Source of the DNA: Spirochaetia bacterium
Lineage (GTDB): Bacteria > Spirochaetota > Spirochaetia > SZUA-6 > Bin103
Assembly: GCA_965203055.1 (NCBI GenBank)
Contig: OZ241863.1
Span: 2,144,001-2,208,000, forward strand
Length of the DNA stretch: 64,000 bases
Direction: 5' to 3'
Of the stretch, positions 3,955 to 19,598 are shown piece after piece. Position 1 is the first letter of the stretch, and every line of letters begins with the position of its first letter. A model generated the notes under the pieces. It made no database searches, was not told the origin of the DNA, and worked only from the letters and a program-made list of their open reading frames with translations. A program made the translations under genes and the position numbers.

Positions 3955-4011
3955 CTGTTCGGCTCAGATCACGACCGCGTGATCAGCTCTGCGTACCGGT
4001 GTCATCGCCGG

Positions 4012-4809: not shown

Positions 4810-4859
4810 GCGCAACCGGCTCCGATTGGCCGGCGAACAGGTCCGGTTGCAGGCCGTCT

Positions 4860-5024
4860 TCAGTCACTGGACCCGCGGTGGGCAATCGCCACCGCAGCCG
4901 TCGTGAAGCTGGACGCCGCCGCAACTGCCGCCGGCGTCAGCCCATCACCGAGGTACAGATCGACCACGAGCACCAGGCCGCCCAGGAGGATGGCCAGCGC
5001 ACCGACGGCGAGGTGCCAAGTCAC
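4860..5024 (-). CDS. Small two-helix membrane protein (holin-like), not in ORF track
   Basis: GTG..TGA ORF of 54 aa, MTWHLAVGALAILLGGLVLVVDLYLGDGLTPAAVAAASSFTTAAVAIAHRGSSD, with two hydrophobic stretches. Confidence 0.45.
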   Translation of the reverse strand: MTWHLAVGALAILLGGLVLVVDLYLGDGLTPAAVAAASSFTTAAVAIAHRGSSD

Positions 5025-5135
5025 CGACCGACCTGCTCAGACACGGCGCCCGCCTGCCGCTGCCGCTCCCGCTCCTGCGCCTCGATGATGCGCGAGGTGC
5101 GCCATGTACGGAACTCCGGTGAACCGCGGCCCCAC

Positions 5136-5690
5136 CTACCTGCTCCCTAGCTCATGGCCCAGAAAGAAACTGGCGAGAGCAGTGCCGGCCGTCGCCAGAC
5201 CGTTGACGATCCGCTGTTCGGCAAGCTGCCGTTGCAAGCCGGCGATCTGCTCCCGCTGCACCCGATCCACGTCCCCGGACAGCGCAACCAGCGCCGCGCA
5301 CAGCGCATGCTCGCGCGGCCGATAGACCCTCACCGCGGCCGCCACCGCCTCGGTGACCGCCGCCTGGACGCTCGCGTCATGCGCCGCCGCGATACGCGCC
5401 ATTGCAGTGTCTACGCCAGCCTGCCACGCCCGCTGCAGGCTATCGCGGTCGGCCGCCGAGAGGCTTGTGTACGCCGCCAAGTCCACCGGCGGGAACGCCG
5501 GCAGCCCCGCGTCCGCGGCCGCGTCGGGCGCGGAACCGCCAGCCGGAACCGCCGGCGCGGCGCCGGCGCACAGCGCCGCGGCATCACTCTGCAGGGTGGT
5601 GTCGCCATTCGTGGTCTGCGATAGCGCGAGCCACGGCAGCCCGCACAGCAGGGTCAGCGCCAGCGAGCACCTGATCGTCTGTCTCCCCAT
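5136..5690 (-). CDS. Hypothetical exported protein with coiled-coil and C-terminal hydrophobic helix
   Basis: N-terminal signal-like SLALTLLCGLPWLALS; C-terminal QLAEQRIVNGLATAGTALASFFLG. Confidence 0.55.
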   Translation of the reverse strand: MGRQTIRCSLALTLLCGLPWLALSQTTNGDTTLQSDAAALCAGAAPAVPAGGSAPDAAADAGLPAFPPVDLAAYTSLSAADRDSLQRAWQAGVDTAMARIAAAHDASVQAAVTEAVAAAVRVYRPREHALCAALVALSGDVDRVQREQIAGLQRQLAEQRIVNGLATAGTALASFFLGHELGSR

Positions 5691-5907
5691 CGAGAACCTG
5701 TTCCTCCTGCTGCTCCGCGGCGCGTCCCGCGGCGACTGCCCGGTCGCGCGCCGCCTGGTCGCGCGCCTCGATCTGCGCTTCGGTACGGTCGCCGGCGGCG
5801 CCGTGGTCGAACGTCCGATGCAACACCAGACCCAACGCCATCACCCCGACCGCGGTGATCACCACTATACTCCACACCTTGGCCAGCGAGACACCTACTA
5901 CATGCAT
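5584..5907 (-). CDS. Hypothetical membrane protein (N-terminal TM + charged helix; i-spanin-like layout)
   Basis: WSIVVITAVGVMALGLVL followed by Ala/Glu/Gln/Arg-rich helix; overlaps next gene by 107 bp. Confidence 0.5.
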   Translation of the reverse strand: MHVVGVSLAKVWSIVVITAVGVMALGLVLHRTFDHGAAGDRTEAQIEARDQAARDRAVAAGRAAEQQEEQVLDGETDDQVLAGADPAVRAAVARAIADHEWRHHPAE

Positions 5908-6024
5908 GGCCTACGGTATCACACGTGCCGACCGCTTGACAGCGCCCGCCACCGAAGTATTCAGAAGACGTTAGAGTCCACAAAGACCGAACCGCCCCTC
6001 ACCGAATCGCCCGCGCGGGGCGGC

Positions 6025-6108
6025 GTGGTCGACCGCGGTGCAATCCATCGGCACCTCCTGGACCCAAGTTCCAGAGGCTATGATAAGTTGTTTCTATGTA
6101 GTTGTTTA
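6025..6108 (+). repeat. 84-bp inverted repeat, left copy (partner 18021-18104)
   Basis: gtggtcgaccgcggtgcaatccatcggcacctcctggacccaagttccagaggctatgataagttgtttctatgtagttgttta matches the reverse complement of 18021-18104 at 77/84 by manual alignment. Confidence 0.92.
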
Positions 6109-6136
6109 CGTATTGTGACTGCATTATGTACGGGGG

Positions 6137-6165
6137 TTGACAACCGAACGGAATCACCTTATACC
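6137..6165 (+). promoter_or_regulatory. Putative sigma70 promoter of lipoprotein 1
   Basis: TTGACA-N17-TATACC; conserved in paralogous copy at 15075. Confidence 0.6.
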
Positions 6166-6230
6166 TATCCCTATACCGTCCAGGCGGAATCGTCTCAGGC
6201 TGTCTCCGTTCGCCGGGACAGAGGGGGGAG

Positions 6231-7754
6231 ATGATGAAACATCTGGTGTATCTGGCTCTAGCGGCAGGCGCTCTTGCGATGATGGGATGTGGCGGAGTTG
6301 CACCCCCGAAGCCTGCAGCTCCGCCGGCGGCAGATCCGCCGGCGCCTACAGCGGCCAAGTACTCCTGCGGCGATGGCTACATCTTCGACGGTGATCAAGT
6401 GCTCGGGCCGGAAGGCGCGGTTGTCAATGATGTCTTCTACTGGGGTTCGAACACCTCGGGAGCGGCGCGATGCTTCTCTGACACTCGAAACAACAGTATG
6501 GTTGGCGTTGGCAGCAGGGTAGAATCGAACGCAGGCGATGCCACAGGCGCAACAGTCATGTCAGTTACCCTTCCTGACGAACGCAGGTGGTATTTCATAC
6601 TTGAATTCTCCGATGGCACCTACTGTTCTGCGGCCTCTGCAGGGGATGGGAGAGCGGCCTGCTTTGCAACGGTGGAACGAGATGCTACCGGATTTCGCTT
6701 GGACGATCTCCCTGCTGTTACACTCCCTGTTCCTGCAGGCGCACCGGAGCCTCCTCTTGTTGAAGATCCCCCCGAGCCTCCTGTTGGCAATACTTATTTC
6801 CGGTGGGGAAGGATCGAAGAAGTTACTACCGACCAACGTAGGTGGTATCTCATACTTGGGTACGGTCCTGGTGAGATCGTCGACGGGCGCGACGACGACC
6901 CCGGGCGGGGTGACCCCGCCTGTATTGCGGCTACTGCAGGGGATGGGATAGTGACCTGCACTGCAACAACGTTTCAAGGTAATGGTGACGATAAATATAC
7001 CACAGACGATCTCCCTGCCTCTACCTCGCCTCAATCTTCCGAAGGCACCGATGCCATATATGCGTACATTAGAGTTTTTAGTCGCCAGGGGGGTCTCTGG
7101 TATCTCGTGCTTGAATCCCCTGATGGCACCTTCTGTTCTGCGGCCACTGCAGGGGATGGGATAGTGACCTGCACGAGCCATCCGTATCCTCCGCTGAGTG
7201 GTGATTGGGTCCCCCCCGGTGGTCCTGGTCCTGGTGGTGGCGACGGGGGCGGGGGGCAAACTGGTGCCCCGGAGCCGGAAGATCCTCAGCCTGTTGGCAA
7301 TACTTATTTCCGGTGGGGAAGGATCGAAGAAGTTACTACCGACCAACGTAGGTGGTATCTCATACTTGGGTACGGTCCTGGTGAGATCGTCGACGGGCGC
7401 GACGACGACCCCGGGCGGGGTGACCCCGCCTGTATTGCGGCTACTGCAGGGGATGGGATAGTGACCTGCACTGCAACAACGTTTCAAGGTAATGGTGACG
7501 ATAAATATACCACAGACGATCTCCCTGCCTCTACCTCGCCTCAATCTTCCGAAGGCACCGATGCCATATATGCGTACATTAGAGTTTTTAGTCGCCAGGG
7601 GGGTCTCTGGTATCTCGTGCTTGAATCCCCTGATGGCACCTTCTGTTCTGCGGCCACTGCAGGGGATGGGATAGTGACCTGCACGAGCCATCCGTATCCT
7701 CCGCTGAGTGGTGATTGGGTCCCCCCCGGTGGTCCTGGTCCTGGTGGTGGCTGA
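6231..7754 (+). CDS. Repeat-domain lipoprotein 1 (WYxIL...CxAATAGDGxxTC family), 3'-truncated next to IS3
   Basis: Lipobox LAMMG-C19, Pro/Ala linker, five copies of the Cys-pair motif, RBS-like gaggggggag, visibly lower GC than flanks. Confidence 0.85.
   Translation: MMKHLVYLALAAGALAMMGCGGVAPPKPAAPPAADPPAPTAAKYSCGDGYIFDGDQVLGPEGAVVNDVFYWGSNTSGAARCFSDTRNNSMVGVGSRVESNAGDATGATVMSVTLPDERRWYFILEFSDGTYCSAASAGDGRAACFATVERDATGFRLDDLPAVTLPVPAGAPEPPLVEDPPEPPVGNTYFRWGRIEEVTTDQRRWYLILGYGPGEIVDGRDDDPGRGDPACIAATAGDGIVTCTATTFQGNGDDKYTTDDLPASTSPQSSEGTDAIYAYIRVFSRQGGLWYLVLESPDGTFCSAATAGDGIVTCTSHPYPPLSGDWVPPGGPGPGGGDGGGGQTGAPEPEDPQPVGNTYFRWGRIEEVTTDQRRWYLILGYGPGEIVDGRDDDPGRGDPACIAATAGDGIVTCTATTFQGNGDDKYTTDDLPASTSPQSSEGTDAIYAYIRVFSRQGGLWYLVLESPDGTFCSAATAGDGIVTCTSHPYPPLSGDWVPPGGPGPGGG
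6780..7751 (+). repeat. Intragenic direct duplication, 462 bp, period 510 bp (6780-7241 / 7290-7751)
   Basis: Copies read identical block by block. Confidence 0.95.
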
Positions 7755-7990
7755 GGCTGAGGCGGCTGAGGTGGTCCCGGTTGGTTAGACAGTCCGAGGG
7801 GTAGGTTAAGGTGTATCCGTCGGTTGTCAACCTACCCCTCCCTCTGCAAATCAGGCGGCGGTAAATCGGGGGTGGGGTCCGGGGCGGGGGTAGCTGTCCC
7901 TGTGGATATGTGGACAACTCCCGCTCCGCGGTGCGCAGCCACTCGCTCCGTTCCCGGTGCTTGCAGTTTGCCCCCCCCCCCCCCATCTCG

Positions 7991-8823
7991 CTACGCCACC
8001 TGCCCGGCCGGCGCCGCCACGCCGCAGTACCCCTCCGCCGGCGTCCGCCCGTCCAGCGCCGAGTGGGGGCGTACCTCGTTGTAGAACTCCATCCACTCCG
8101 CGATCACGCGCTGCGCCGCGAAGCCGTCCGCCAACTCGTGCAGGTACACCGCCTCATACTTCAACGACCGCCACAGCCGCTCGATGAACACGTTGTCCAG
8201 GCAGCGCCCACGACCGTCCATCGAGCAGCGTATCCCGGCCGCCTCCAACTGCCCCGTGAACGCCCTGCTGGTGAACTGGCTGCCCTGATCGGTGTTGAAG
8301 ACCTCCGGCTTGCCGTAGCGCTCCTGCGCCTGTGCCAACGCCAGCAGGCAGAACTCGCTGTCCAGCGTATTCGCCAGTTCCCAGGCCAGCACCCGCCGAC
8401 TCGCCCAGTCCATCACCGCCACCAAGTACAGGTACCCGTCCTGCACCGGGATATAGGTGATGTCTGCGCACCACACCTGATTCGGTCGCGTAATGGTAAG
8501 CCCTCTCAACAGATACGGATACACTTGATGGTCCGGGTTCGGCACCGTGGTGCGCGGCTTGCGGTAGATCGCCTCCAACCCCAGCAGCCGCATCAGCCGT
8601 CGCACCCGGTGGCGCCCCGCCGTTACCCCTCCCGCGCCAGATGCCGGGCCAGCTGCCGACTGCCGTAGAACGGGTACTTCAGGTACAACTCGTCGATGCG
8701 GCGCATCAAGCTGAGCGTCGCCGCGCTGGCTCCGCGCGGTCGGTAGTACAGGGCCGAGCGGCATACGCCGAGCAGCCGGCACTGCCGACTCAAGCTGAGA
8801 CTCGAATGCTCGCGGTCAACCAT
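7991..8823 (-). pseudogene. IS3 OrfB DDE transposase with apparent 1-nt frameshift near 8626
   Basis: WCADITY, FNTDQGSQFTS, DNVFIERLWRSLKYE; the N-terminal part (RQCRLLG..YPFYGSR) is in another frame and ends REG*. Confidence 0.85.
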
Positions 8824-8843
8824 CAGCCGTCGTTGCTCCAGGC

Positions 8844-9146
8844 TCAGCGATCGAGCCCGCGCGCTAAAAAATCACGCTCCACGGTCAACTCGCCAATCTT
8901 GGCATGGAGGTCATGGATGAGCGCCTCCTGCTCGGCGGGGCCGCGCTTGGCGGTCGCGGCGAACAGTTCTTCGAGTCCGGTCTGGGCTTGCCGCTTCCAG
9001 ACGCTGACCTGATTTGGATGAACGTGGTGCTTGGCAGCGATCGCCTGGATCGTGCGGTCCCAGCGGAACGCCTCCAGCGCCACCCTGGCTTTGAACTGTG
9101 CTGTGAATCGGCGTCGTTTCGTCGCCATCCCATCGGCCCTCCTCAT
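8844..9146 (-). CDS. IS3 OrfA (HTH)
   Basis: RRRFTAQFKARVALEA..HPNQVSVWK..KIGELTVERDFL; TTTTTTA slippery-like motif at its end. Confidence 0.9.
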   Translation of the reverse strand: MRRADGMATKRRRFTAQFKARVALEAFRWDRTIQAIAAKHHVHPNQVSVWKRQAQTGLEELFAATAKRGPAEQEALIHDLHAKIGELTVERDFLARGLDR

Positions 9147-9195
9147 GGCCTGGAATACACCTTAACCTCCTGTCCAATTTTCCGGGACCACCTCA

Positions 9196-9370
9196 CCTCA
9201 ATCTTCCGAAGGCACCGATGCCATAGCTGCGGTAGTGGGACTTCGCTCTAGCCAGTGGTAATCTCATACTTGAATCCCCTGATGGCACCTTCTGTTCTGC
9301 GGCCACTGCAGGGGATGGGATAGTGACCTGCACGAGCCATCCGTTTCCTGCTCCGTTTCCTGGGCTATGA
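9196..9370 (+). pseudogene. Orphan cassette of the lipoprotein repeat domain (+1 frameshift)
   Basis: PQSSEGTDAI-AAVVGLRSSQ-W, then tggtaatctcatacttg (extra A versus tggtatctcatacttg), then ESPDGTFCSAATAGDGIVTCTSHPFPAPFPGL*. Confidence 0.88.
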
Positions 9371-9637
9371 AGTGAACCGGGGCTCTGCAGGCATGGCCGC
9401 GGCGCGCTTGTAGCCGATGCGACCGGCCAGCAGCCAATGATAGCCGTAGAACTGCGAGCTGGTGGTGCGGGCCGCCCCGTGGGCGCACGCGGCCAGCAGC
9501 CGCCTTCCACCAGAAAATCCTACGATTTCGCGTGCGAACGGGCGTTGACGCGGGCTGGCGCCGGGCCAGCGGCGGCCTTCGGAGCCCTTGCGCCCCCGGC
9601 CGTTGGTGGGTAGATTCTCTGTCAGGAGGGAGGTGAG

Positions 9638-12577
9638 ATGCGTTGGCGTGATGCAGGTGACTCCGGTGGTGGGTCGGCGGCCGGGAGTAGTGGGACCCTG
9701 AACAAGGCGTCGCTGTATGCCCTGTTGAAGACCATTCTACAGTCGTCCGAGAGGGTGCACGTCGAGGCGGACGATCCGCATTTCAGGCTGACGCTGTCGC
9801 TGACTGACGATGCTCGGGTGGTCCTTGAGGGTGCTGTCCAGGTGGACGGTATCGATCTCTCCGGGCGTGATCTGGGGTTCTCCAGTGACGGGGGGAGCAG
9901 TGTCAGCTTCACGATGCCCGGCATCACGACGGCGGATGAGGGAAGCGACCTCGGGCGGGTAAATACCGTCGAGAAGCTCAACTTCACAGGCGCGGGCGTG
10001 ACGGCGACGCGCGTGCCCGGTTCGCCTGAGACTACCGTCAACATTCCCGGCGCCAACCCTGGGTCGGGCGGTGTGTCGTTGGCGCAGGTGGACGGGCGGA
10101 TCGATGGGAATCCGCGGGTGACGAGTCTGTCGCGCTTCGAGGCGGCGCTCCGCAAGACCACCGTCATCAGCGGACCCGCTGCCTTCACGGTGGCGTCGCC
10201 GAACGCCGCGGTGGCGATCAGCGGGTCGGTGCCGGGCGCGGAAGCGGACCGCGAGCTGGTGGTGGCGGTGACCGGCTCCCCCACCCAGACGTTCCAGCTC
10301 TCCTCGTTCGCCGGCAAGGATGCGGCCGCCGCCGCCATCACGCTCACGGACGCCAACTCGGTAAAGTGGATGGCGGGCACGGTGACGTATCGCCTTGGCC
10401 ACACCGCCGCCGGGGGGTTCGTTGCGTCCGCCAGTACCGCCGCCACCTACACCATCACCTTGACGGACAGCCGGATCGACCTTGAGACGTGGGCGCGGCG
10501 AAACGGCGAGCAGATTCCCGCCAACCGCCTGCCGAACGGCGGCGGGCTGGGGCAGGCTGCGGTGGACGCGCGGATCGACGCGAATCCGCGGGTGACGAGT
10601 CTGTCGCGCTTCGAGGCGGCGCTCCGCAAGACGACCGTCATCAGCGGACCCGCTGCCTTCACGGTGGCGTCGCCGAACGCCGCGGTGGCGATCAGCGGGT
10701 CGGTGCCGGGCGCGGAAGCGGACCGCGAGCTGGTGGTGGCGGTGACCGGCTCCCCCACCCAGACGTTTCAGCTCTCCTCGTTCGCCGGCAAGGATGCGGC
10801 CGCCGCCGCCATCACGCTCACGGACGCCAACTCGGTAAAGTGGATGGCGGGCACGGTGACGTATCGCCTTGGCCACACCGCCGCCGGGGGGTTCGTTGCG
10901 TCCGCCAGTACCGCCGGCACCTACACCATCACCTTGACGGACAGCCGGATCGACCTGGAGGGTTGGGCGCGGTTGAACGGCGGTCAGATCCCCGCCAACC
11001 GCCTGCCGAACGGCGGCGGTCTGACCCAGGGGCAGGTGGACGCGCGCATCGAGCCGTTCGCGCGCGCCGGCACCACCACCAGGGTGCCGGAATCGCACCT
11101 CCCGACCGACCTCGACCACCTTCTGGACGCGCTGGCCGACGGCGGGTGGTCCACGGAGGGGAACAACGCCGCCGAGGATGCCTGGATCGCCCAGGTTGCC
11201 AGCGCCGTGGGCCCGACCATCGGGGCGGCGCGCGGCTACACCTACGCCAGCGCCACCTGGGAGCGGACCGGCCCCACGATTACGCCGGCGTGGCTGACCG
11301 TGCGGGTGCCGGCGGGGCTGAAGGATGAGGTGGCCGCCGGGAACCTGCGTCTGATCGCCGACTACAACAACGACCCGGACGACATGGGCGATATCGCGGT
11401 GTCGAGTGGCTGGATCCACGTGGGGGACAGCACGGACGGCACCTACCGGTACTACATCCAGCGCTTCACGGGGGTGCCGGCGGGAACCAACATCGTGCAG
11501 CGCTACACCCGGTTCCGCATCGACCGCACCAAGCTCGACACCGGGGTGCCGGTGGGGACGGCGGCGGATGCAGGCGCCGTCCTGACCAAGCGCGCTGATG
11601 GGCCGGTCTGGGAGCAACTGCGGCGCCTGCACGGTCTGCAGGTGCTGCATCACGGGAGCATCGCCCGATTGGCCCTTTCCGCCTTGAATGCGATTGGGAC
11701 CCAGAACCTGACCGGCTTCGCCCCGGCGTTCGATCTCGATGATCACCCTGCCGGTGAGATCCATGCGGAGGTGGTGGCGCGCATCGTCACGCGGAGTGCG
11801 TCCAACATCGGGTGGGGCTCTGGTGGCGCGGACATTGATGGCCGGATCGTGGGGTTGGAGTTCGCCAGCGCCGTGGCGGCCGCTGATGCGTTTGTGTCGG
11901 GGGGCACGGTAGAGGGGGTCGAGGTTGGCCACCTCCTCCTTTACAAGGGTGCGGCGAAGCAGGGCGTGCTGCGGTTCTATCTGGGGCGTGACGGCTCGAA
12001 TCGTGCCGGGTATCTGCTCGACTACCGGCCGGAGAGCGGTGCTTCGAGTACCGACAACGTCACCATCGACGCGCAGCTCGACGTGTCGTTCATGCCGGCG
12101 GACGGTGGTGGTGGCAGTACTAGCGGCGTAGGCGCCAAGATTGCGACCTACGCGTTTCCAGTTGCCGCAGCGAGTTACCAGGCCAGGGTCATGATCCACG
12201 GCACATGGACCATCGAAAGCGCTGGCGCCTCGCGATACGAGCGAAGCGGTAACAACGATGCCCTGCGCATCCCGCGGGTTCTGCCGGATACGCAAGTGGG
12301 CTTTCGCGGTGTAGTGAAGGTTGGTTCTGCTACGGTATCGACATTCTTCGTGCCGTGGACGCTGCTGGTTGCGCCATCAACCACTAGCACTCACTTTGAT
12401 CATGTCAATCAGGACTACTACATGACCATTCCTTACGATGCTCGGGATAGTTATACCGTCCTGCTTATCGTGCAACGGCAGGGCTTGAATACCTATAAGG
12501 ACGCTATCTTCTTCCGCGGCTGCGGCGACAATATTCCGGCTGGTGTGACCGTCGAGTTGTACGAGTGGATGGCGTGA
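9638..12577 (+). CDS. Large repeat-containing protein, phage tail-fibre/adhesin-like
   Basis: Strong RBS aggagggaggtgag; DEGSDLG..KLNFTGAGVTAT and repeated QVDARI/QVDGRI linkers recall fibre proteins; Gly/Ala/Thr-rich; no obvious signal peptide. Confidence 0.65.
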   Translation: MRWRDAGDSGGGSAAGSSGTLNKASLYALLKTILQSSERVHVEADDPHFRLTLSLTDDARVVLEGAVQVDGIDLSGRDLGFSSDGGSSVSFTMPGITTADEGSDLGRVNTVEKLNFTGAGVTATRVPGSPETTVNIPGANPGSGGVSLAQVDGRIDGNPRVTSLSRFEAALRKTTVISGPAAFTVASPNAAVAISGSVPGAEADRELVVAVTGSPTQTFQLSSFAGKDAAAAAITLTDANSVKWMAGTVTYRLGHTAAGGFVASASTAATYTITLTDSRIDLETWARRNGEQIPANRLPNGGGLGQAAVDARIDANPRVTSLSRFEAALRKTTVISGPAAFTVASPNAAVAISGSVPGAEADRELVVAVTGSPTQTFQLSSFAGKDAAAAAITLTDANSVKWMAGTVTYRLGHTAAGGFVASASTAGTYTITLTDSRIDLEGWARLNGGQIPANRLPNGGGLTQGQVDARIEPFARAGTTTRVPESHLPTDLDHLLDALADGGWSTEGNNAAEDAWIAQVASAVGPTIGAARGYTYASATWERTGPTITPAWLTVRVPAGLKDEVAAGNLRLIADYNNDPDDMGDIAVSSGWIHVGDSTDGTYRYYIQRFTGVPAGTNIVQRYTRFRIDRTKLDTGVPVGTAADAGAVLTKRADGPVWEQLRRLHGLQVLHHGSIARLALSALNAIGTQNLTGFAPAFDLDDHPAGEIHAEVVARIVTRSASNIGWGSGGADIDGRIVGLEFASAVAAADAFVSGGTVEGVEVGHLLLYKGAAKQGVLRFYLGRDGSNRAGYLLDYRPESGASSTDNVTIDAQLDVSFMPADGGGGSTSGVGAKIATYAFPVAAASYQARVMIHGTWTIESAGASRYERSGNNDALRIPRVLPDTQVGFRGVVKVGSATVSTFFVPWTLLVAPSTTSTHFDHVNQDYYMTIPYDARDSYTVLLIVQRQGLNTYKDAIFFRGCGDNIPAGVTVELYEWMA
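10088..11019 (+). repeat. Intragenic tandem duplication, period 474 bp (158 aa)
   Basis: aatccgcgggtgacgagtctg at 10109 and 10583; near-identical with scattered substitutions. Confidence 0.93.
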
Positions 12578-13653
12578 TGGACTCGCCGTCATTCCCGACC
12601 GGTCGTTCCGCGCCTGACGCGCGCGCCGTGCGGCCGCTGGCGAACGCGCCGCCGGCCTCCCCGGCCCGGACCGTGCGCAACGCCGCCCCGGCCCGGACCG
12701 TGCGCAACGCCGCTCCGCGGACCGTGCCGGCGCTCGACAGCGACATCGAATCCCTGGTCACCGAGGATGATACGCCGGTGGACAACCTGCCCTCCGAGAA
12801 GCAGCAACGCCTGCTCACCGAGCCGTTGTACAGTTCCTGGGCCGGCCCCGGCGGCGGGCGCCCGTTTCTGGCCGCCGCCAACGTGGGCGTGTTCCCTGAA
12901 GCGCGCAATCCGGCGATCGTGCCGGACGTGTTGCTGAGTCTGGACGTGCAGGTGCACGAGAACTGGTGGGACAAGGAGCACCGCTCCTACTTCGTGTGGG
13001 AGTTCGGCAAGGCGCCGGACCTGGTGGTGGAAATCGTGTCCAACCGGAAGGGCGAGGAGATTGGGAAGAAGCGGATGAGGTACGCCCGGATGGGGGTTGG
13101 CTACTACGTGGTCTCCGATCCGTTGCGGCAGGTGATGGGAGATGAGCTGCGCGTCTTTCGGTTGAGCGGCGGGGGATACGAACGCCAGGAGTGGCCCTGG
13201 TTCCCGGAGCTGGGGCTGGGGATGACGCTGTGGGAGGGGGAGTTCGAGGGCGTGCGCAGCCGGTGGCTGCGCTGGACGGACGCGCAGGGCGAGTTGATCC
13301 CCACCGGCAAGCAGCGTGCAGAGCAGCAACAGCAGCGCGCAGAGCAGGAGGCGGCCGCTCGCCAGGCCGCAGAGACCCGTGTCCAACAGGAGGCGGCCGC
13401 GCGCCGCCAGGAAGCGGACGCACGCCAAGCCGCAGAAATCCGCGTCCAACAGGAGGCGGCCGCCCGCCGCCAGGAAGCGGACGCACGCCAAGCCGCAGAA
13501 ATCCGCGTCCAACAGGAGGCGGCCGCCCGCCGCCAGGAAGCGGACGCACGCCAAGCCGCAGAAATCCGCGTCCAACAGGAGGCGGCCGCGCGCCAAGCGG
13601 CCGAAGCGCGGGTGGCCGAACTCGAGGCATTGCTAGGCCGCAGATCCACCTGA
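12577..13653 (+). CDS. Uma2 (DUF820) family PD-(D/E)XK endonuclease with coiled-coil tail
   Basis: EDDTPVDN..SEKQQRLL, IVPDV, GKAPDLVVEIVS; ATG overlaps upstream stop (TGATG). Confidence 0.9.
   Translation: MDSPSFPTGRSAPDARAVRPLANAPPASPARTVRNAAPARTVRNAAPRTVPALDSDIESLVTEDDTPVDNLPSEKQQRLLTEPLYSSWAGPGGGRPFLAAANVGVFPEARNPAIVPDVLLSLDVQVHENWWDKEHRSYFVWEFGKAPDLVVEIVSNRKGEEIGKKRMRYARMGVGYYVVSDPLRQVMGDELRVFRLSGGGYERQEWPWFPELGLGMTLWEGEFEGVRSRWLRWTDAQGELIPTGKQRAEQQQQRAEQEAAARQAAETRVQQEAAARRQEADARQAAEIRVQQEAAARRQEADARQAAEIRVQQEAAARRQEADARQAAEIRVQQEAAARQAAEARVAELEALLGRRST
13345..13610 (+). repeat. 63-bp tandem repeat (QQEAAARRQEADARQAAEIRV)
   Basis: gtccaacaggaggcggccgc at 13381, 13444, 13507, 13570. 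Confidence 0.95.
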
Positions 13654-13887
13654 CGCTATCTGCGTCGGAAGTGGCCCGGCGGCCCTCGGCTCGGCTGGCT
13701 TGGATAGCTTGGCTCTCGCTGGATTCCCAGAATAGATCGCTGGCCCGGACGGCCCTGCAATGTCCAGCGCTGCCGGAACGTCCCGATCGCCGGCGCTCCG
13801 CGGGTGCCAAGTGCGGCAGTTGACCCGCTACCGGCGATGTTTGGTCGGCGAGCGCAGCCGGGCGCGCAAGACCCTCGACCACGTCGC

Positions 13888-14823
13888 TCACACGTTATAG
13901 CGCTCGAACCGGCCGGCGATGTTCCGGCGGGTAGCTTCCTCCTGCGAAATGAGCTGGCTGGCGGAGAGGCCCGTCAGGTTCTCCATCTGCTCCAATCGCC
14001 GGGCGAACAACGGCAGCCCCAGTTGCTCCGCTCCCCCAGCCTGCGACGTAGTGCTGCCGATGAGAATGTTGTTGGCTGCTTCCAGCTTCGACCGCCCATG
14101 CATGACGTCCCGCACGTACTTGCCGGCCCAGCCCGGGCCGGCATTCCACGCCAGCCCCATGAGCCCGCCTGCCTGCCGGACCGTCCCCACCAGACCCTTG
14201 GTGATGGCATCCGCCACCGGAGCCCAGTGCGACCGCCACAATGCGCCCGTGCGCATGATCTGGTTATTCGACATCCCTTCGTCGACGCGCAGACGTTCCG
14301 CCTCATCGGCGCGGCGTGCGGCAGCTCCCCAATCCGCCCCGAAGTTCTCGCCGGCAAGCGTCGCCCAGGTGTCGCCGGCGTCCCTGTAGACGCCGTTCCG
14401 CACCATCTCGCCATTGATTTCCTCGCCGTCGTTGCGCTTGTCGATCCACCGTTCCTTGCCGATCAGCGACTCGATGATCTGATCGTATTGCTGATCCGTG
14501 CCCTGCCATCGATCCCGGTTCGTGCGCCGGTCATCATTCACCGGTTCGACGGCCCGCGAACCTCCGGTGATCCGGATCACCTGACCGGGATGGATCAGAT
14601 CCGGGTTCTCGATGTTGTTCCGCTGGGCCAGCGCTTGCACCGTCGTGCCGTACCGGCGCGCGATGGCGCCCAGGGTCTCCCCCGGGCGCACCGTATGGGT
14701 CTGCGTCTCCGGAGACCGCGCCTGCCGGCGCCCCGGATGCCCCGGCGCGGCGCCAAACGGAGTATCTGATGCCATCCTGCGATCCTCCCATTGACCAGTG
14801 GCGGCGTCGAAGTATACCCCCAA
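13888..14823 (-). CDS. LysM-domain protein with unknown C-terminal region (alternative start 14775)
   Basis: HTVRPGETLGAIARRYGTTVQALAQRNNIENPDLIHPGQVIRI; GGAGG upstream of ATG 14775. Confidence 0.85.
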   Translation of the reverse strand: MGVYFDAATGQWEDRRMASDTPFGAAPGHPGRRQARSPETQTHTVRPGETLGAIARRYGTTVQALAQRNNIENPDLIHPGQVIRITGGSRAVEPVNDDRRTNRDRWQGTDQQYDQIIESLIGKERWIDKRNDGEEINGEMVRNGVYRDAGDTWATLAGENFGADWGAAARRADEAERLRVDEGMSNNQIMRTGALWRSHWAPVADAITKGLVGTVRQAGGLMGLAWNAGPGWAGKYVRDVMHGRSKLEAANNILIGSTTSQAGGAEQLGLPLFARRLEQMENLTGLSASQLISQEEATRRNIAGRFERYNV

Positions 14824-14865
14824 TATCCGCCCTCGTCACCTCCTCGATGGCGGGCGGGCGACGGC

Positions 14866-15013
14866 GCGCGCATTTCCAAAATGCAGGTAAGGGTCGGGCC
14901 GCTTGGCGGCCAAGCCCAGTCCCCGGCTGCGCCGGCGCCTGAGCCGATACCTTCGCCGCCGAAGGAGCGGCGCTGTCCGCGCTGGCCACCGCAGCGCCGC
15001 GCGCCGAGGCCGC
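14866..15013 (-). mobile_element. Internally deleted remnant of the HNH cassette at 25524-27320
   Basis: 14868-14923 matches 25526-25582; ~14923-15013 matches ~26050-26155. Confidence 0.88.
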
Positions 15014-15074
15014 TAAGGATAACTTGTTTCCATGTCGTTGTTTATCATATTATGGACTGCATTGTGTACGGGGG

Positions 15075-15103
15075 TTGACAGCCGAACGGAATCACCTTAA
15101 CTT
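15075..15103 (+). promoter_or_regulatory. Putative sigma70 promoter of lipoprotein 2
   Basis: TTGACA-N17-TAACTT; the region 15018-15166 is homologous to 6082-6230. Confidence 0.65.
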
Positions 15104-15166
15104 ACCAACATATGCCGTCCAGGCGGCATCGCCTCAGTGCTGTCTCCGCTTGCGGGACCGGGGGGA

Positions 15167-16498
15167 ATGATGAAGCATCTGGTGTATCTGGCTCTAGCGG
15201 CAGGCGCTATTGCGGTGACAGGATGTGACGACGTTGCAGCTCCGAAGCCTGCAGCTCCGCTGGCGGCCGCACCGGCGCCTACACCGGCGGCCGAGTACTC
15301 CTGCGGCGATGGCTACATCTTCGACAGTGATCAAGTGCCCGGGCCGGAAGGCGCGGTCGTCAACGATGTCTTCTACTGGGGTTCGAGCACCTCGGGAGCG
15401 GCGCGATGCTTCTCTGACACTCGAAACAACAGCATAGTCGGCAGGGTAGAATCGAACGCGGGCGATGCCATAGCCGCAACAACCATGTCAGTTACCCTTT
15501 CCGGCGAACGCAGGTGGTATCTCATACTTGAATTCTCCGATGGCACCTACTGTTCTGCGGCCACTGCAGGGGATGGGAGAGCGACCTGCTTTGCAACGGT
15601 GGAACGAGATGCTACTGGATTTCGCGTAGACGATCTCCCTGCTGTTCCACTTCCTGTTCCTGAAGGCGCACCGGAGCGTCCTGTTGTAGATCCTCCCGGT
15701 GGTCCCGGTCCTGGTGGTGGCGACGTGGGCGGGGGGCATACCGGTGCCCCGGAGCCTGCCCCGAAGCCGGAAAAGAGGAAATTCAAGAATGCAAGGGTCG
15801 CCTATATTGCGGACCCGGATCAGAGCCGAGGCGGCGTTGACCGCCTGAGATTCGTTACCCGGGAGGGATTGGACGATTACGACGATCTTCCTGACGAACG
15901 TAGGTTGTATTTAATACTTAAGTTGAACGTTCCACGTGACGGTTACATCACCTCTCATAATTGTATTGTGGCTACTACAGGGAATGGGAGAGTGACCTGC
16001 GTTGCACCGTTGAAATTCTGGTGGGACCATTCTCACTGCAGCGACGGCGAATGCAATGGAGACGGTGATGGTCATATTCGGTTTACATATAACGCCACAG
16101 GACGGACCGCGCCGCATCCATCAGTAGACCATTTCCCTACCTCTACCTCGCCTCAATCTTCCGACGGCGACAATGCCATAGGCGTGACAGCCTATCTCCT
16201 CTATAGTGATGTGCAAAGCAACCCTCGCCACTATGGCAGGGAGACTTTTTACGTACCTCCAGGCTGGCCTAGTTCTCCTAGCACAGATAGGTGGTATTTC
16301 ATACTTGCATTCTCCGACCTCCACCCGCATCGCCCGTTTGATCTCGATCTCGATCCAAACGGGGTCAATGATCATACCTTCTGTATTGCGGCAACTAAAG
16401 GTGATGGAATAGTGACCTGCCATGAAATGGTGAAAGGAGTTTCTACTAAATATGCGAATGGTTACATTGACCAATGGGAAGTACCATACGTGCCGTAG
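15167..16498 (+). CDS. Repeat-domain lipoprotein 2, paralog of 6231-7754
   Basis: MMKHLVYLALAAGAIAVTG-C lipobox; N-terminal ~175 aa closely similar to lipoprotein 1; three Cys-pair motifs, two with different loops. Confidence 0.87.
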   Translation: MMKHLVYLALAAGAIAVTGCDDVAAPKPAAPLAAAPAPTPAAEYSCGDGYIFDSDQVPGPEGAVVNDVFYWGSSTSGAARCFSDTRNNSIVGRVESNAGDAIAATTMSVTLSGERRWYLILEFSDGTYCSAATAGDGRATCFATVERDATGFRVDDLPAVPLPVPEGAPERPVVDPPGGPGPGGGDVGGGHTGAPEPAPKPEKRKFKNARVAYIADPDQSRGGVDRLRFVTREGLDDYDDLPDERRLYLILKLNVPRDGYITSHNCIVATTGNGRVTCVAPLKFWWDHSHCSDGECNGDGDGHIRFTYNATGRTAPHPSVDHFPTSTSPQSSDGDNAIGVTAYLLYSDVQSNPRHYGRETFYVPPGWPSSPSTDRWYFILAFSDLHPHRPFDLDLDPNGVNDHTFCIAATKGDGIVTCHEMVKGVSTKYANGYIDQWEVPYVP

Positions 16499-16508
16499 CG
16501 GTGAGCGG

Positions 16509-16552
16509 TGAGGTGGTCACCGGTTGGTTAGACAGTCCGAGGGGTAGGTTAA
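16509..16552. mobile_element. Solo IS3 end
   Basis: tgaggtggtcaccggttggttagacagtccgaggggtaggttaa equals 7767-7809 plus one inserted A. Confidence 0.9.
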
Positions 16553-16601
16553 CCGAGATTCTCAACTACTGCAAGGCCACCCTGATCTCAATCCACAAGA
16601 C

Positions 16602-16630
16602 TTGACAATATCTCAGAACACCGGTAATTT
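16602..16630 (+). promoter_or_regulatory. Putative sigma70 promoter
   Basis: TTGACA-N17-TAATTT upstream of the 16792 gene. Confidence 0.6.
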
Positions 16631-16791
16631 TGGTACGAAGCGGTCCCGCCGACTACTGGCCGCGAATGGCTTGTCGTTGCGGGACCCGGACATCTGAACG
16701 GGCGCGGGCTGGCGCCGGGCCGGCGGCGGCCTCGGAGCCCCTCGGCCCCCGGCCGTTGGTGGGGTAGATTCTCTGTCAGGAGGTAGGTGAT

Positions 16792-17796
16792 ATGCGTTGG
16801 CGTGATGCAGGTGACTCCGGTGGCGGGTCGGTGGCCGGGAGTAGTGGGAGTTTTGAGGAAGCGCTACGGCGCGTAACTGTCATTGTGGACGGAGATACCG
16901 TCAACATTTTGAATCGTCCTGCTCCCTATCGGATAAGCAGCGATGCTATAGTTCCTGAGAGAGAGGCTGACAGGAGGCTACGGTTGGCGGCGAGCACGTC
17001 GGCTATTGATTCTGCGGAACTGGACGGCGAGTCTACCACGATCAAGCTGTCCGATCTTCTCGCCAAGCAGGTGATTCCGACTCGCTCGCATGTGATGAAC
17101 TCGTCCAACTCGGTGACGTTCCGGGGCGTTGAGGGTAGGACGATGTACATTGGGACGATGTACATTGGCAGGTCAGAAGATCGCCAGTTCCTGATCGGTT
17201 CCGACTCCCCCAGTACCTATCGCGTCTACATCCGTGACGACCGGATTGACATTCGCCCGGAGCGCCTCGAAAGGACGGTTGATGACCGCATCAAGCCGTT
17301 CGCGCGCGCCGGCGCCACCCCCACCAAGATTGCGACCTACAGTTTTCCACCTGCCGATTTAGAGCCGTACCCGGCGGGTACTCCTATCAACGGCAGTTGG
17401 CTCATCGCAAGCACCGCTACCCCCGATCGATACGAGCCAAGCGATGACAACATTGCCCTGCGCATCCCGCGGAATCTGCCGGCTACGCTATCGGGCTTTT
17501 ACGGTGAAGTGAAGGTTGGTTCTACTAAGGTATCGACATTCATCGTGCCGTGGACGCTGGTGGTTGCGCCCACTAGCACTAGCGCTCTCACACTTAACGC
17601 TCATAATGTCGAGCAGGGCTATTACATGACCATTCCTGACAATAATCAGAATGGTTATAGCGTCATGCTTGTCGTGCAACGGCAGGCCGTAAATAACTAT
17701 AAGGACGCTATCTACTTCCGGGGCTGCGGCAACAATATTCCGGCTATTCCGGCTGGTGTGCCCGTGACCGTCGATTTGTACGAGTTGTTGTCGTGA
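16792..17796 (+). CDS. Short paralog of the fibre-like protein
   Basis: Same leader/RBS and start MRWRDAGDSGGGS; one diverged repeat unit (FEEALRRVTVI), DDRIKPFARAG, homologous C-terminal domain (KIATY..STFIVPWTL..KDAIYFRGCG). Confidence 0.8.
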   Translation: MRWRDAGDSGGGSVAGSSGSFEEALRRVTVIVDGDTVNILNRPAPYRISSDAIVPEREADRRLRLAASTSAIDSAELDGESTTIKLSDLLAKQVIPTRSHVMNSSNSVTFRGVEGRTMYIGTMYIGRSEDRQFLIGSDSPSTYRVYIRDDRIDIRPERLERTVDDRIKPFARAGATPTKIATYSFPPADLEPYPAGTPINGSWLIASTATPDRYEPSDDNIALRIPRNLPATLSGFYGEVKVGSTKVSTFIVPWTLVVAPTSTSALTLNAHNVEQGYYMTIPDNNQNGYSVMLVVQRQAVNNYKDAIYFRGCGNNIPAIPAGVPVTVDLYELLS

Positions 17797-18020
17797 CGGC
17801 CAATGGCCCTCGCGTACCGTGACAGACAACTTCGGCGGCGGCGTGAATGAGCGGTCGCCGGTATGGCGGCGAGGCGCGACGGCAGCGCTCCGGTGGTGAA
17901 CCGGCCGCCCCCGGCAACCGCAACGGCGCCGTCCACTGCCGTGCCGTCCATGACACTGAGCACCGATCACCAGGGTTACCACGGTCCGGCGCAACGGCGA
18001 GTCCTATCCGATCCGATCGA

Positions 18021-18104
18021 TAAACAACGACATAGAAATAAGTTATCATAGCCTCTGGAACTTGGGTCCGGGAGGTACCGATGGATTGCACCGCTCTCGA
18101 CCAC
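18021..18104 (-). repeat. 84-bp inverted repeat, right copy
   Basis: Reverse complement matches 6025-6108 at 77/84. Confidence 0.92.
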
Positions 18105-18107
18105 TTC

Positions 18108-18194
18108 ACCTATAAGGACGCTATCTTCTTCCGCGGCTGCGGCTACAATATTCCGGCTGGTGTGACCGTCGAGTTGTACGAGTGGATGGCGTGA
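18108..18194 (+). pseudogene. Orphan 3' end of the fibre-like gene
   Basis: 86/87 identical to 12491-12577, including the stop codon. Confidence 0.92.
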
Positions 18195-18335
18195 CGGCCA
18201 ATGGCCCTCGCGTACCGCGCTGCGGTCGTGGTTCGAGGTGGCGACCGGCAAATCGTACACCCGGTCGGTTACCACGGTCCAGCGCAGAATAACTCGCTGG
18301 CCCGGACGGCCCCGCAATGTCCAGCGCGCGGGCGT

Positions 18336-19598
18336 TCAGACCGGAAGCTGAATGGCGGCGTAGGGGTACACCGCCGCCTTGGCGCCGCGCGGGAAGCGCG
18401 CGGTGAGGTGCGTCATTACTTCGCTCCAGTCAGCGCACGCCACTACCTGGCCGCCGCGGCCGTAGCCGTCCAGGTCGGTGCGTGACTGGTAGCGCGAGCA
18501 GACCAGGAGCTGCCCGGCCTTGCGGATCGGGCAGTGCTCGACCGGTGACCAGATGCTGCCGCCGTAGTCGGTGCCGAAGCGGCCGCCGAGGTAGTGCGCC
18601 GCCTGTCCCTCGACGCTCTGGCAGATCACCACCGCGGTCCCGCCCTCCTTGAGGGAGAGATCGGGCGGCCACATCCCCTTCACCGCCTGATTCTCGATCG
18701 GGTAGGTGTTGGTCACCACCACCTCGCAGTCGCCGGCCATGGCGGTGGCGTACAGCTTCCGCGCCGCGGCCACGCCGGCGCGGTGCTGCTCCACGAACTG
18801 GCCGGCCAGCACCTGCACCACCTCGCGCCGCGGGTTGATCAGCAGATCGATCTTGAAGTCCAGGCCCACCATGGCGACTGCTTCTTCCAGGTCCCGGCGG
18901 ATCACGCTGTCTTCGATGTTGCCGAGCAGATCGACCCCGCCGGCGCCGTCCGCGCGCCGCGCCGCGGCGTCACGGCGGCCGAGGACGCGGTGGTTGTGAT
19001 CCACGGTGGCGATGCCGGCGACGCCCGGCACGAGCAGCTTGGCGCCGCCGCCGAACCCGGCCGAGCGATGCGGAATGAGACCGCCGATGCCAATCCGCAG
19101 ATCGCATTCCATCACCTCGCGGTTGATTTCCACGCGCGTGCCGCGGCTGGTGGTGCCCACCTCGACCAGGTGGTCGAACGGATTGTGATTGTAGACCCGG
19201 TAGCGGCGCACCACCTCCGCGCCCAGCTTCTTGGTGAAGTCTTCGAGGGACATCGCCGCGTGATTGGCGAATGCGCCTACCAGCCGAATCCGGTCCTCCT
19301 CCAGACCGGCGGCGCGCAGCTCGGCCAGCACCAGCGGCAGGATGCGCCAGGTGGGCGCCGGCCGGGTGAGGTCGTCGAACAGGATTACCGCCTGCTTGCG
19401 GCCGCGCGCCAACTCGCGCAGCCGCGCGGTGCCCAGCGGGCGCTCCAGTTGGGCGCGGAGCTGGGCGTCGTCGAGGGCAACGGCGTCGTGCCCGGCCATC
19501 AGGCACTCCCGTACCTGCCAGGAGGCCGGGAACCGCAGCTCCATGTCGCGGTCCCCGTACCAGGCGTGGGTGGGTATTCGGATCGTCGTGCTATCCAT
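18336..19598 (-). CDS. LarA (nickel-pincer racemase/epimerase) family protein
   Basis: DDLTRPAP, ANHAAM, YNHNP, GTTSRGT, PHRSAGFGGGAKLLVPGVAG. Confidence 0.85.
   Translation of the reverse strand: MDSTTIRIPTHAWYGDRDMELRFPASWQVRECLMAGHDAVALDDAQLRAQLERPLGTARLRELARGRKQAVILFDDLTRPAPTWRILPLVLAELRAAGLEEDRIRLVGAFANHAAMSLEDFTKKLGAEVVRRYRVYNHNPFDHLVEVGTTSRGTRVEINREVMECDLRIGIGGLIPHRSAGFGGGAKLLVPGVAGIATVDHNHRVLGRRDAAARRADGAGGVDLLGNIEDSVIRRDLEEAVAMVGLDFKIDLLINPRREVVQVLAGQFVEQHRAGVAAARKLYATAMAGDCEVVVTNTYPIENQAVKGMWPPDLSLKEGGTAVVICQSVEGQAAHYLGGRFGTDYGGSIWSPVEHCPIRKAGQLLVCSRYQSRTDLDGYGRGGQVVACADWSEVMTHLTARFPRGAKAAVYPYAAIQLPV

Follow-up and report, generated by a model that had tools for sequence, protein, structure and literature searches.

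We analyzed a 64,000-nt stretch of the genome of a Spirochaetia bacterium (GenBank assembly GCA_965203055.1, contig OZ241863.1, positions 2,144,001–2,208,000 of the forward strand), hereafter referred to as the window. Positions 6025–18335 of the window carry two modules, A and B, each containing a lipoprotein gene followed by a fibre-like gene, together with the remnant of a third module. The guanine–cytosine (GC) content was 55–60% in this island and 70–77% (about 72%) in its flanks. The left flank consists of housekeeping genes for GlnE, LigD-primpol, and SDR, and the right flank of those for LarA and PolX, with the end of the LarA gene at 18336. The modules comprise the following features.

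6019..13880 (+), module A as a presence/absence unit, delimited by the contig joints of runs X3 and X6
6025..6081 (+), upstream block X, common only to the inverted copy at 18048–18104
6082..6108 (+), AT-rich 27-nt core of all three modules, from a three-way comparison
6109..6230 (+), promoter and ribosome-binding site (RBS) of lipoprotein A, with TTGACA at 6136
6231..7754 (+), lipoprotein A (P0001, 507 aa), with lipobox LAMMGC, truncated in its Pro/Gly linker
7768..9197 (−), complete IS3-family insertion sequence (rve, 1.8e-25; HTH_Tnp_1, 4e-11)
9198..9369 (+), frameshifted C-terminal remnant of lipoprotein A; 9190–9349 matches 7023–7190 at 83%
9549..9637 (+), conserved leader of fibre gene A, identical to 16703–16791 at 82 of 89 positions and present also at locus L001
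9638..12577 (+), fibre-like gene A (P0003, 979 aa), carrying a 474-nt tandem repeat
13728..13770 (+), 43-nt downstream box, 40/43 to 18285–18327
15018..15166 (+), core and promoter/RBS of module B, from the repeat comparison with module A
15167..16498 (+), lipoprotein B (P0002, about 443 aa from ATG), with a natural C-terminus and lipobox AVTGC
16508..16552 (no strand), solo IS3 left end of 45 nt, starting 10 nt past the natural stop of lipoprotein B
16703..16791 (+), leader of fibre gene B, the counterpart of 9549–9637
16792..17796 (+), fibre-like gene B (P0004, 334 aa), with a 19-residue N-terminus, one beta domain, and a tip domain at residues 174–334
18019..18104 (−), inverted copy of core and X, with 84 nt 92% complementary to 6025–6108
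18108..18327 (+), third-module remnant, which abuts the end of the LarA gene and is made up of the final 90 nt of a fibre gene (98% to A), a post-stop box identical to that of module B, and the 43-nt box

Lipoprotein A contains a perfect 510-nt tandem duplication (6780–7241 identical to 7290–7751) and is cut within its Pro/Gly linker by the IS3 element, the flanks of which are not contiguous in an intact gene. The element has a 98.6% identical copy elsewhere in the genome, and its terminal repeats were read from the sequence. Just past the transposase stop lies a stretch of about 15 C residues (7971–7985), and contigs of two other sequencing runs contained three bases fewer at 7973. The promoter hexamers of lipoprotein A were also read from the sequence and were not called by the promoter scan. 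The AT-rich core contains an outward promoter-like site (TAAACA-17-TATCAT), the regional number of such sites being not above the shuffled expectation.

The region 5900–18500 was queried against the window by blastn. Modules A and B share a 701-nt block at 88% identity (6082–6774 and 15018–15698; E 0.0), which spans the AT-rich core, the promoter/RBS, and the first half of the lipoprotein gene; a 49-nt block at 96% (7762–7809 and 16505–16552; E 6e-14); a 148-nt block at 93% comprising the leader and the first 19 fibre codons (9549–9695 and 16703–16849; E 8e-57); and a 478-nt block at 77% at the 3′ end of the fibre gene (12135–12580 and 17324–17799; E 4e-99). The third-module remnant shares 90 nt at 98% with fibre gene A (12491–12580 and 18108–18197; E 2e-38) and 40 of 43 nt with the downstream box of module A (13728–13770 and 18285–18327; E 3e-11), and its 26-bp post-stop box is identical to that of module B (17794–17819 and 18192–18217). 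Every repeat listed in an earlier note on this DNA, including the third module end at 18108–18327, was thus recovered (blastn E 3e-11 to 0.0). The note had also placed the same IS3 end after both lipoprotein stops; the sequence is indeed shared, but the positions are not equivalent, with a whole IS3 in module A and the 45-nt solo end in module B. Similarly, the conserved regulatory and junction blocks that it described are real, although part of the junction DNA turned out to be insertion-sequence debris. An inverted repeat had been overlooked: 6025–6108 is the reverse complement of 18021–18104 (84 nt, 92%), and the inverted copy abuts the fibre remnant of the third module. The 27-nt core was present in all three modules, and block X outside the core was found only in module A and the inverted copy, with an identical outer breakpoint. 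Module B is bracketed by a 29-nt inverted repeat (15018–15046 and 18019–18047).

The blocks retained between modules A and B were of one age. Synonymous divergence (dS) was 0.17 in the N-terminal part of the lipoprotein and 0.13 in the fibre tip; the promoter regions (6082–6230 and 15018–15166) were identical at 128 of 149 positions (86%), and the leaders were 92% identical. This common synonymous age fits a single co-duplication of the lipoprotein–fibre pair. The interiors of the genes do not align at all between A and B, which indicates that they were replaced rather than worn down. In the lipoproteins, the 701 nt of 88% identity are followed by scattered motifs only. Fibre gene A and its paralogue at L001 showed a dS of 0.063 over the first 1914 nt and 1.38 thereafter, with the blastn match stopping at 11552. 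The divergence was therefore strongly non-uniform, in contrast to the uniform divergence that the earlier note had named as the mark of one old duplication followed by decay. The ratio of nonsynonymous to synonymous divergence (dN/dS) was 0.67 in the N-terminal part of lipoproteins A and B and 0.33 in the common part of fibre A and L001. In the fibre tip of A and B, dN was 0.295 and dS was 0.129, giving a dN/dS of 2.29 (bootstrap 1.49–4.19; 0 of 2000 replicates at or below 1).

Neither lipoprotein matched any Pfam, PHROG, or NCBIfam family above the cut-off; a bPH_6 match on lipoprotein A reached 20.9 bits, under the cut-off of 22. Relatives numbered 17 among the 5.8 billion clusters searched. 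All 18 lipoproteins have in common an N-terminal domain of about 170–185 residues, with an identity of 75–98% (median 85%; 153 pairs), followed by a Pro/Gly linker, and the lipobox cysteine is nearly invariant throughout the family. Past the linker, they fall into four unrelated C-terminal clusters. Distant paralogues have only the N-terminal domain in common and carry FN3-like, Calx-beta, or other repeats behind it; two of these are encoded in this genome (locus L002) and about 13–14 in each of two other genomes, the congener G010 and G012. Of 24 genomes in the taxonomic family, 4 encoded members of this lipoprotein family, at 4–14 copies per genome. No homopolymer tract was present in the promoter or coding sequence of either window lipoprotein gene. 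An AlphaFold2 model of the lipoprotein was unusable (pLDDT 43), a search of the ESM Atlas with the N-terminal domain yielded zero matches, and the lipoprotein alignment returned one weak 39-residue match (L015) of no use from JGI metagenomes. At L002 (G000:2960001–2980000), the two paralogues have Calx-beta ends, are inverted, and lie 10 kb apart (3817–7388 and 11854–14945). The genes downstream of them start with the same 10 residues and continue as different proteins, one O-antigen-ligase-like and the other a repeat protein, forming another duplication junction. A fragment of the lipoprotein N-terminal domain with one stop codon (G000:C1:298655–299026) is located 3 kb from a reverse-transcriptase match (301848–302333).

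The fibre-like proteins likewise matched no Pfam, PHROG, or NCBIfam family above the cut-off, and their family is very rare, with 18 clusters at E ≤ 0.001 and 6 at E ≤ 1e-30 in a HMMER search of 1.84 billion representatives, and with members in 3 of 92 genomes of the order. The third paralogue in this genome, L001, lies 1.1 Mb from the window in a BREX/TerB/DUF499 defence island and has no lipoprotein beside it. All three fibre open reading frames (ORFs) are intact (979, 978, and 334 codons). Fibre A consists of the leader, an N-terminal domain, two 158-residue units, a middle part, and tip a, and fibre B of the leader, a different unit, and tip b; L001 matches A for 638 codons and then differs. 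Three proteins from other samples (P0027, P0028, and P0029) contain the domains of A, B, and L001 in other orders. P0027 is a mosaic in which one unit from A and one from B are combined with the middle part of A and the tip of L001, and in P0029 the N-terminal domain is joined straight to the tip. The window genes are devoid of the N-terminal domain of longer relatives, and one distant relative contains a collagen-like stretch that matches tail-fibre PHROGs.

The origin of the tip was traced in G012. The tip profile matched G012:1495509 (E 1e-7) and G012:1080629 (E 2e-6), both of which form the C-terminal end of an approximately 445-aa protein encoded by Mu-like prophages, and hhalign of the tip against this protein gave a probability of 95% (E 3.8e-8). 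The gene for the 445-aa protein directly follows those for the head protease and major head protein (phrog_371, 8e-90) and precedes those for the sheath (phrog_907), tube, and tape-measure proteins. The two prophages are nearly identical (L019, 1487001–1503000; L020, 1072001–1089000) and include transposase A and B genes. Homology and gene context thus show that the tip is of phage origin, and the label "fibre-like" in the earlier note is apt in that the tip is homologous to a protein of a phage structural module. No prophage was found around the window fibre genes, the neighbors of which are the housekeeping genes named above, and probes with the PF05065 capsid model and the G010 terminase (TerL) gave zero matches in this genome; judged from these searches, the three fibre genes of this genome are orphans without a prophage. 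When 50,697 phage records were searched by tblastn with P0003 and P0032, zero matches were obtained, and a search of IMG/VR with P0032 gave zero relatives; JGI metagenomes searched with the fibre alignment gave none, and PDB sequence profiles gave nothing under E 0.28. The AlphaFold2 model of fibre B (pLDDT 77.7) contains two beta domains. Its fold matches, phage K gp144, the T7 gp17 tip, and a monocin side fibre, are suggestive, with Z-scores of 5.9–6.1 that lie under the advised trust level of 8, and weaker matches (Z 4–5) were to the C1q, TNF, and BclA jelly rolls. A BFVD fold search yielded jelly-roll noise only, and the best ESM Atlas score (0.83, viral and fibre clusters) serves as a lead only.

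Both lipoprotein genes of the window recur in G041 (same coordinates as G011), which belongs to another genus of the same family, at 96–97% identity (97% for the B copy) and 10 kb apart. The homology begins about 17–21 nt ahead of the start codon and ends just beyond the stop codon, and the chromosomal setting is different, each lipoprotein gene being followed by insertion sequences and a converging nucleotidyltransferase–AIPR pair. The core genes of the two genomes are much more divergent (PolX, 68% identical; fmt-priA region, 65–70%), from which it follows that the lipoprotein genes recently crossed a genus boundary. No fibre match was found in the whole G041/G011 genome. The likeness between the window genome (G000) and G041 ends inside the IS3 end remnant, which marks the insertion sequence as a point of rearrangement. 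The nucleotidyltransferase and AIPR abortive-infection pair is itself duplicated in G041 (L013, 5776–7253 and 12182–14175), with one copy downstream of each lipoprotein gene. Directly before a −35-like hexamer of the G041 lipoprotein B copy (L013, 9880–9905) lies a G-rich run, G6 A G9, and the AT-rich core upstream of this copy looks inverted by eye relative to the window.

Strain variants were examined in contigs assembled from runs of other studies, labelled as sponge and marine metagenomes. Module A was absent from contigs of X3 and X6, two runs of separate studies, in which 6018 was joined to 13881 with 25 other letters between. Run X3 also contained a joint from 6077 to 15018, which places the flank of module A on the core of module B, and in X3 and X6 the right end of IS3 was joined straight to the fibre leader at 9577. 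Run X1 covered 5000–6272 unbroken, with module A present. The 15 joints listed for four runs, taken from contigs and not from reads, were all skips, and none changed strand; a further 27 joints are unlisted. The joints from 11552 to 18171 and from 16505 to 18179 were set aside because their sides were under 30 nt, and they probably derive from paralogues.

Within and between the modules, the island contains additional genes and repeats.

from 6048 (−), start of a 25-codon ORF in X, with a minus-strand GGAGG, read from the sequence
7991–8782 (−), orfB of the IS3 element (rve)
8844–9146 (−), orfA of the IS3 element (HTH_Tnp_1)
12577..13653 (+), Uma2-family nuclease gene with 63-nt repeats (Pfam Uma2, 1.2e-15)
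13888..14823 (−), gene for a LysM-domain protein between the modules (LysM, 9.5e-18)
14850..15013 (no strand), two ends of a short repeat that is dispersed through the genome in dozens of copies
16550..16581 (no strand), end of a second repeat family with 9 further exact copies elsewhere in the genome
18081..18194 (+), 37-codon chimeric ORF that starts in the inverted X, in frame with the last 30 fibre codons

The ATG of the Uma2 gene overlaps the stop of fibre gene A (TGATG), and homology to its genomic paralogues begins exactly at 12577. Four other Uma2 copies that were examined (window-relative positions 1706152, −169490, −982180, and 2383186) have an upstream region of their own in common, which ends with TATAGT or TATACT a few bases before the ATG and has a leaderless appearance; the window copy has the end of fibre gene A in its place, with the switch falling exactly at the ATG. 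The chimeric ORF has a Shine-Dalgarno sequence and an ATG inside X of the inverted copy, which precede the fibre remnant in frame; this join may be due to chance. In other copies of the dispersed repeat, the blocks corresponding to 14850–15013 sit about 430–530 bp apart, and the window copy resembles a small mobile element with an internal deletion. GC content is also low (about 57%) in a second patch, at 27378–28538 of the window, where an ORF of 386 residues encodes a type I restriction HSDR_N domain.

With a probability of roughly 0.6, we interpret the locus as a horizontally acquired, strain-variable surface-gene island of a sponge-associated bacterium, shaped by recombination and insertion sequences and with no programmed variation machine, in which the fibre tip would be under positive selection. 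The recombination and diversification that the earlier note had proposed are apparent in the strongly non-uniform divergence, the mosaic fibre alleles, the tip dN/dS of 2.3, the four lipoprotein C-terminal types, and the contigs without module A or with the A flank on B. The ancestral unit would have consisted, in order, of the AT-rich core, promoter, lipoprotein gene, leader, fibre gene, and downstream boxes, and would have been duplicated in tandem at least twice. Gene interiors would then have been replaced by recombination with other alleles, with C-terminal domains behind the Pro/Gly linker being swapped in the lipoprotein and whole domains being swapped or lost in the fibre, while IS3 and other mobile DNA inserted, deleted, and rejoined sequence and positive selection acted on the fibre tip. 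The lipoprotein is presumed to be exposed and anchored in the membrane, its N-terminal domain being constant and its outer part exchangeable. The fibre-like protein would be derived from a Mu-like phage virion protein whose receptor-binding-type tip has been kept. Both genes may act in surface recognition during conflict with phages or neighboring cells, a role that would account for their build-up in defence or variable islands and their movement between genera.

Several observations weigh against this interpretation. The 84-nt inverted repeat and the outer X breakpoint, identical in two copies, are unexplained by simple duplication. The strain joints were read in short contigs, in which one side of each joint spans about 30 nt, and the tip dN/dS of 2.29 was obtained by a counting method from one pair of 150 codons in GC-biased genes. 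The fold matches of fibre B fall below Z 8, and Foldseek against PDB returned nothing at E ≤ 0.001. The fibre proteins have no signal peptide that would account for secretion or surface exposure, and none of the 20 listed runs is an RNA run. Finally, the repeated adjacency in G010 may reflect a real functional pair.

In G010, fibre and lipoprotein genes lie 31–70 nt apart in two clusters (L016 and L017), which adjoin a terminase gene (phrog_38, 1e-59), an integrase, and Abi genes. Two AAA-ATPase_like/PDDEXK_9 genes in tandem precede each cluster, a gene of this kind also flanks the lipoprotein locus L002, and the lipoprotein pair of L017 is inverted relative to that of L016, without flanking inverted repeats of note. 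The co-occurrence of the two genes elsewhere, as anticipated by the earlier note, was thus seen in these two clusters; it failed in G011/G041, where the lipoproteins are alone, and at L001, G010:1382241, and G012, where the fibres are alone. A cognate functional pair that travels together, in which the lipoprotein would mask or mimic the receptor of the fibre, on the model of the neighboring pb5 and Llp of phage T5, or would anchor the fibre on the cell, could explain the two pairs and one remnant in the window island and the G010 clusters, as well as the finding that the three fibre-bearing genomes (92 of the order searched) are all among the four lipoprotein-bearing ones (24 of the family searched). 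By rough arithmetic, with about 13 lipoprotein genes per 5 Mb, 2–3% of fibre loci would be expected within 5 kb of one, and 3 of 7 were seen. We nevertheless regard such a pair as unlikely: both lipoprotein genes occur at 96–97% identity in G011/G041 with zero fibre matches genome-wide, the fibres at L001 and G010:1382241 have no lipoprotein, neither of the two fibre-tip genes of G012 is near any of its about 14 lipoprotein genes, and most lipoprotein copies in G010 and G012 are not beside fibres. In the window, the two genes are linked via insertion-sequence debris and not by a conserved spacer, and the lipoproteins have 440–510 residues, compared with about 60 for Llp. As both families are island cargo, common hot spots could also yield adjacency. 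Still more doubtful is a proposal in which the fibre tip would bind the variable outer domain of the neighboring lipoprotein, and the matched pair would move between genera of sponge-associated bacteria as a surface-identity unit, serving as an exclusion, decoy, or kin-recognition device against phages or particles with related tips, with the partners co-diversifying; if the pair were matched, co-diversification would account for both the tip dN/dS of 2.3 and the swapped lipoprotein ends.

The arrangement of the inverted repeats raises the question of a programmed DNA-inversion switch of the shufflon, Mu G-segment, or Mycoplasma vsa type at the 84-nt repeats or the 27-nt core. The 84-nt repeats bracket the whole 12-kb locus and the 29-nt repeats module B, the core occurs in all three copies, the outer breakpoint of X is identical in two, and the core looks inverted by eye upstream of the G041 lipoprotein B copy. 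A switch is nonetheless highly improbable, given that the ORFs chosen for Pfam scans in window 1–37 kb included no recombinase other than the IS3 transposase, that the listed strain joints show no strand change, and that the G010 clusters have no flanking inverted repeats. Moreover, each lipoprotein and fibre gene has its own promoter or leader inside the segment, and from this anatomy inversion would leave expression unchanged. A diversity-generating retroelement was rejected, as RVT_1 matches occurred only at genome positions 301848 and 523259, >1.6 Mb away, and the 90-nt fibre 3′ repeat differs at two positions, neither of which involves adenine. A transposon bounded by the 84-nt inverted repeats was also rejected, since no target duplication was found and strains without module A retain the right-hand repeat region. 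The dedicated system implied by the earlier note was accordingly not supported, with no recombinase found among the scanned ORFs, no reverse transcriptase close by, and no silent-cassette array. It is also conceivable, but quite improbable, that the fibre genes represent decaying remains of a prophage since lost, the lipoproteins unrelated neighbors, and the shared blocks leftovers of one old duplication. Such decay would agree with the abundance of insertion-sequence ends and short dispersed repeats in the island and the insertion of a Uma2 gene, with the truncation of lipoprotein A, the near loss of the third module, and the zero matches to the PF05065 capsid and TerL probes. It is contradicted by the intactness of the three fibre ORFs, the dN/dS of 0.33 in the part common to fibre A and L001, the tip dN/dS of 2.3 at low dS, which is above the neutral value of 1, the non-uniform divergence, and the recent intact transfer of the lipoprotein genes between genera.

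The favored interpretation of the locus as a recombining surface-gene island was compared with described systems. Phage tail-fibre and receptor-binding genes exchange domains and are thereby mosaic. The window fibre genes resemble them in being modular, with whole domains swapped, duplicated, or dropped between alleles, and in having a beta-domain tip that is probably under positive selection and has a homologue in a Mu-like prophage structural module. They differ in being outside any prophage, with their own leaders and without the N-terminal domain of longer relatives, and in the zero matches of the window family in 50,697 phage records or IMG/VR. Variable lipoprotein families with a conserved 5′ region include Vlp, Vsa, and Vsp of Mycoplasma and the prophage-borne Erp and Mlp of Borrelia. 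The window lipoproteins share with these a conserved promoter, signal peptide, and N-terminus followed by a variable remainder, and the presence of several copies per genome, and the host is likewise labelled a spirochaete; in contrast, homopolymer tracts are missing from the window copies, a search of the scanned ORFs revealed no site-specific recombinase, and the variation is between strains and genera and not within a clone.

The Llp lipoprotein has about 60 residues. The window lipoproteins resemble the Llp/Cor type in their lipobox cysteine (LAMMGC in A and AVTGC in B), and they differ in their 443–507 residues, exchangeable C-terminal domains, and multi-copy family, with no sequence relation found. 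The order is also different, in that the lipoprotein gene comes first here and the setting is not a phage genome; any receptor binding is putative. A published account of phage T5 describes the gene for the superinfection-exclusion lipoprotein Llp as adjacent to and downstream of that for the receptor-binding protein pb5 (PMC9586334), and this precedent, which also favors a cognate pair, resembles the window in placing a receptor-binding-type gene beside a lipoprotein gene at a surface-recognition interface. The adjacency was found here in the window island and the two G010 clusters and not in G011, G012, or L001. In replacement flexible genomic islands, as presented by Lopez-Perez et al. (2014; PMC4033161), strain-variable content between conserved flanks encodes presumed exposed structures and is exchanged by homologous recombination, as appears to be the case here; a link to phage pressure is proposed, not shown. 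The window differs in that the variation observed comprises only the presence or absence of module A and one A–B joint in short contigs, in that the lipoprotein genes occupy another chromosomal context in G011, and in that insertion sequences join in the rearrangements. In programmed inversion systems (Mu G segment, shufflon, and vsa), inverted repeats flank the segment as they do here; no recombinase gene was found in the scanned ORFs. Defining features of the inversion, diversity-generating retroelement, and Llp families were tested for and not found, and the locus is not a member of any of them. It instead brings together known themes: mosaic phage fibres, flexible islands of the replacement type, and variable lipoproteins whose 5′ region is conserved. 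New are the finding of a fibre family that is rare and orphaned, the dated duplication that it underwent together with a lipoprotein gene, the positive selection indicated for the tip, and the near-identical lipoproteins in two genera.

The locus illustrates the diversification of surface genes in uncultured host-living bacteria and is unusually well dated, as all retained duplication blocks are at the same synonymous divergence. A rare phage-virion domain appears to have been taken from a prophage and kept intact, probably under positive selection, in chromosomal islands, and the adjoining exchangeable lipoprotein family crosses genus boundaries almost unchanged. The unannotated fibre-tip family deserves structural analysis and a binding assay. 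If the two proteins bind each other, they would constitute a mobile receptor-and-ligand cassette of a kind that we did not find described; if they do not, the locus would still provide a clean case of a surface island of the replacement type that recombination and insertion sequences have built.

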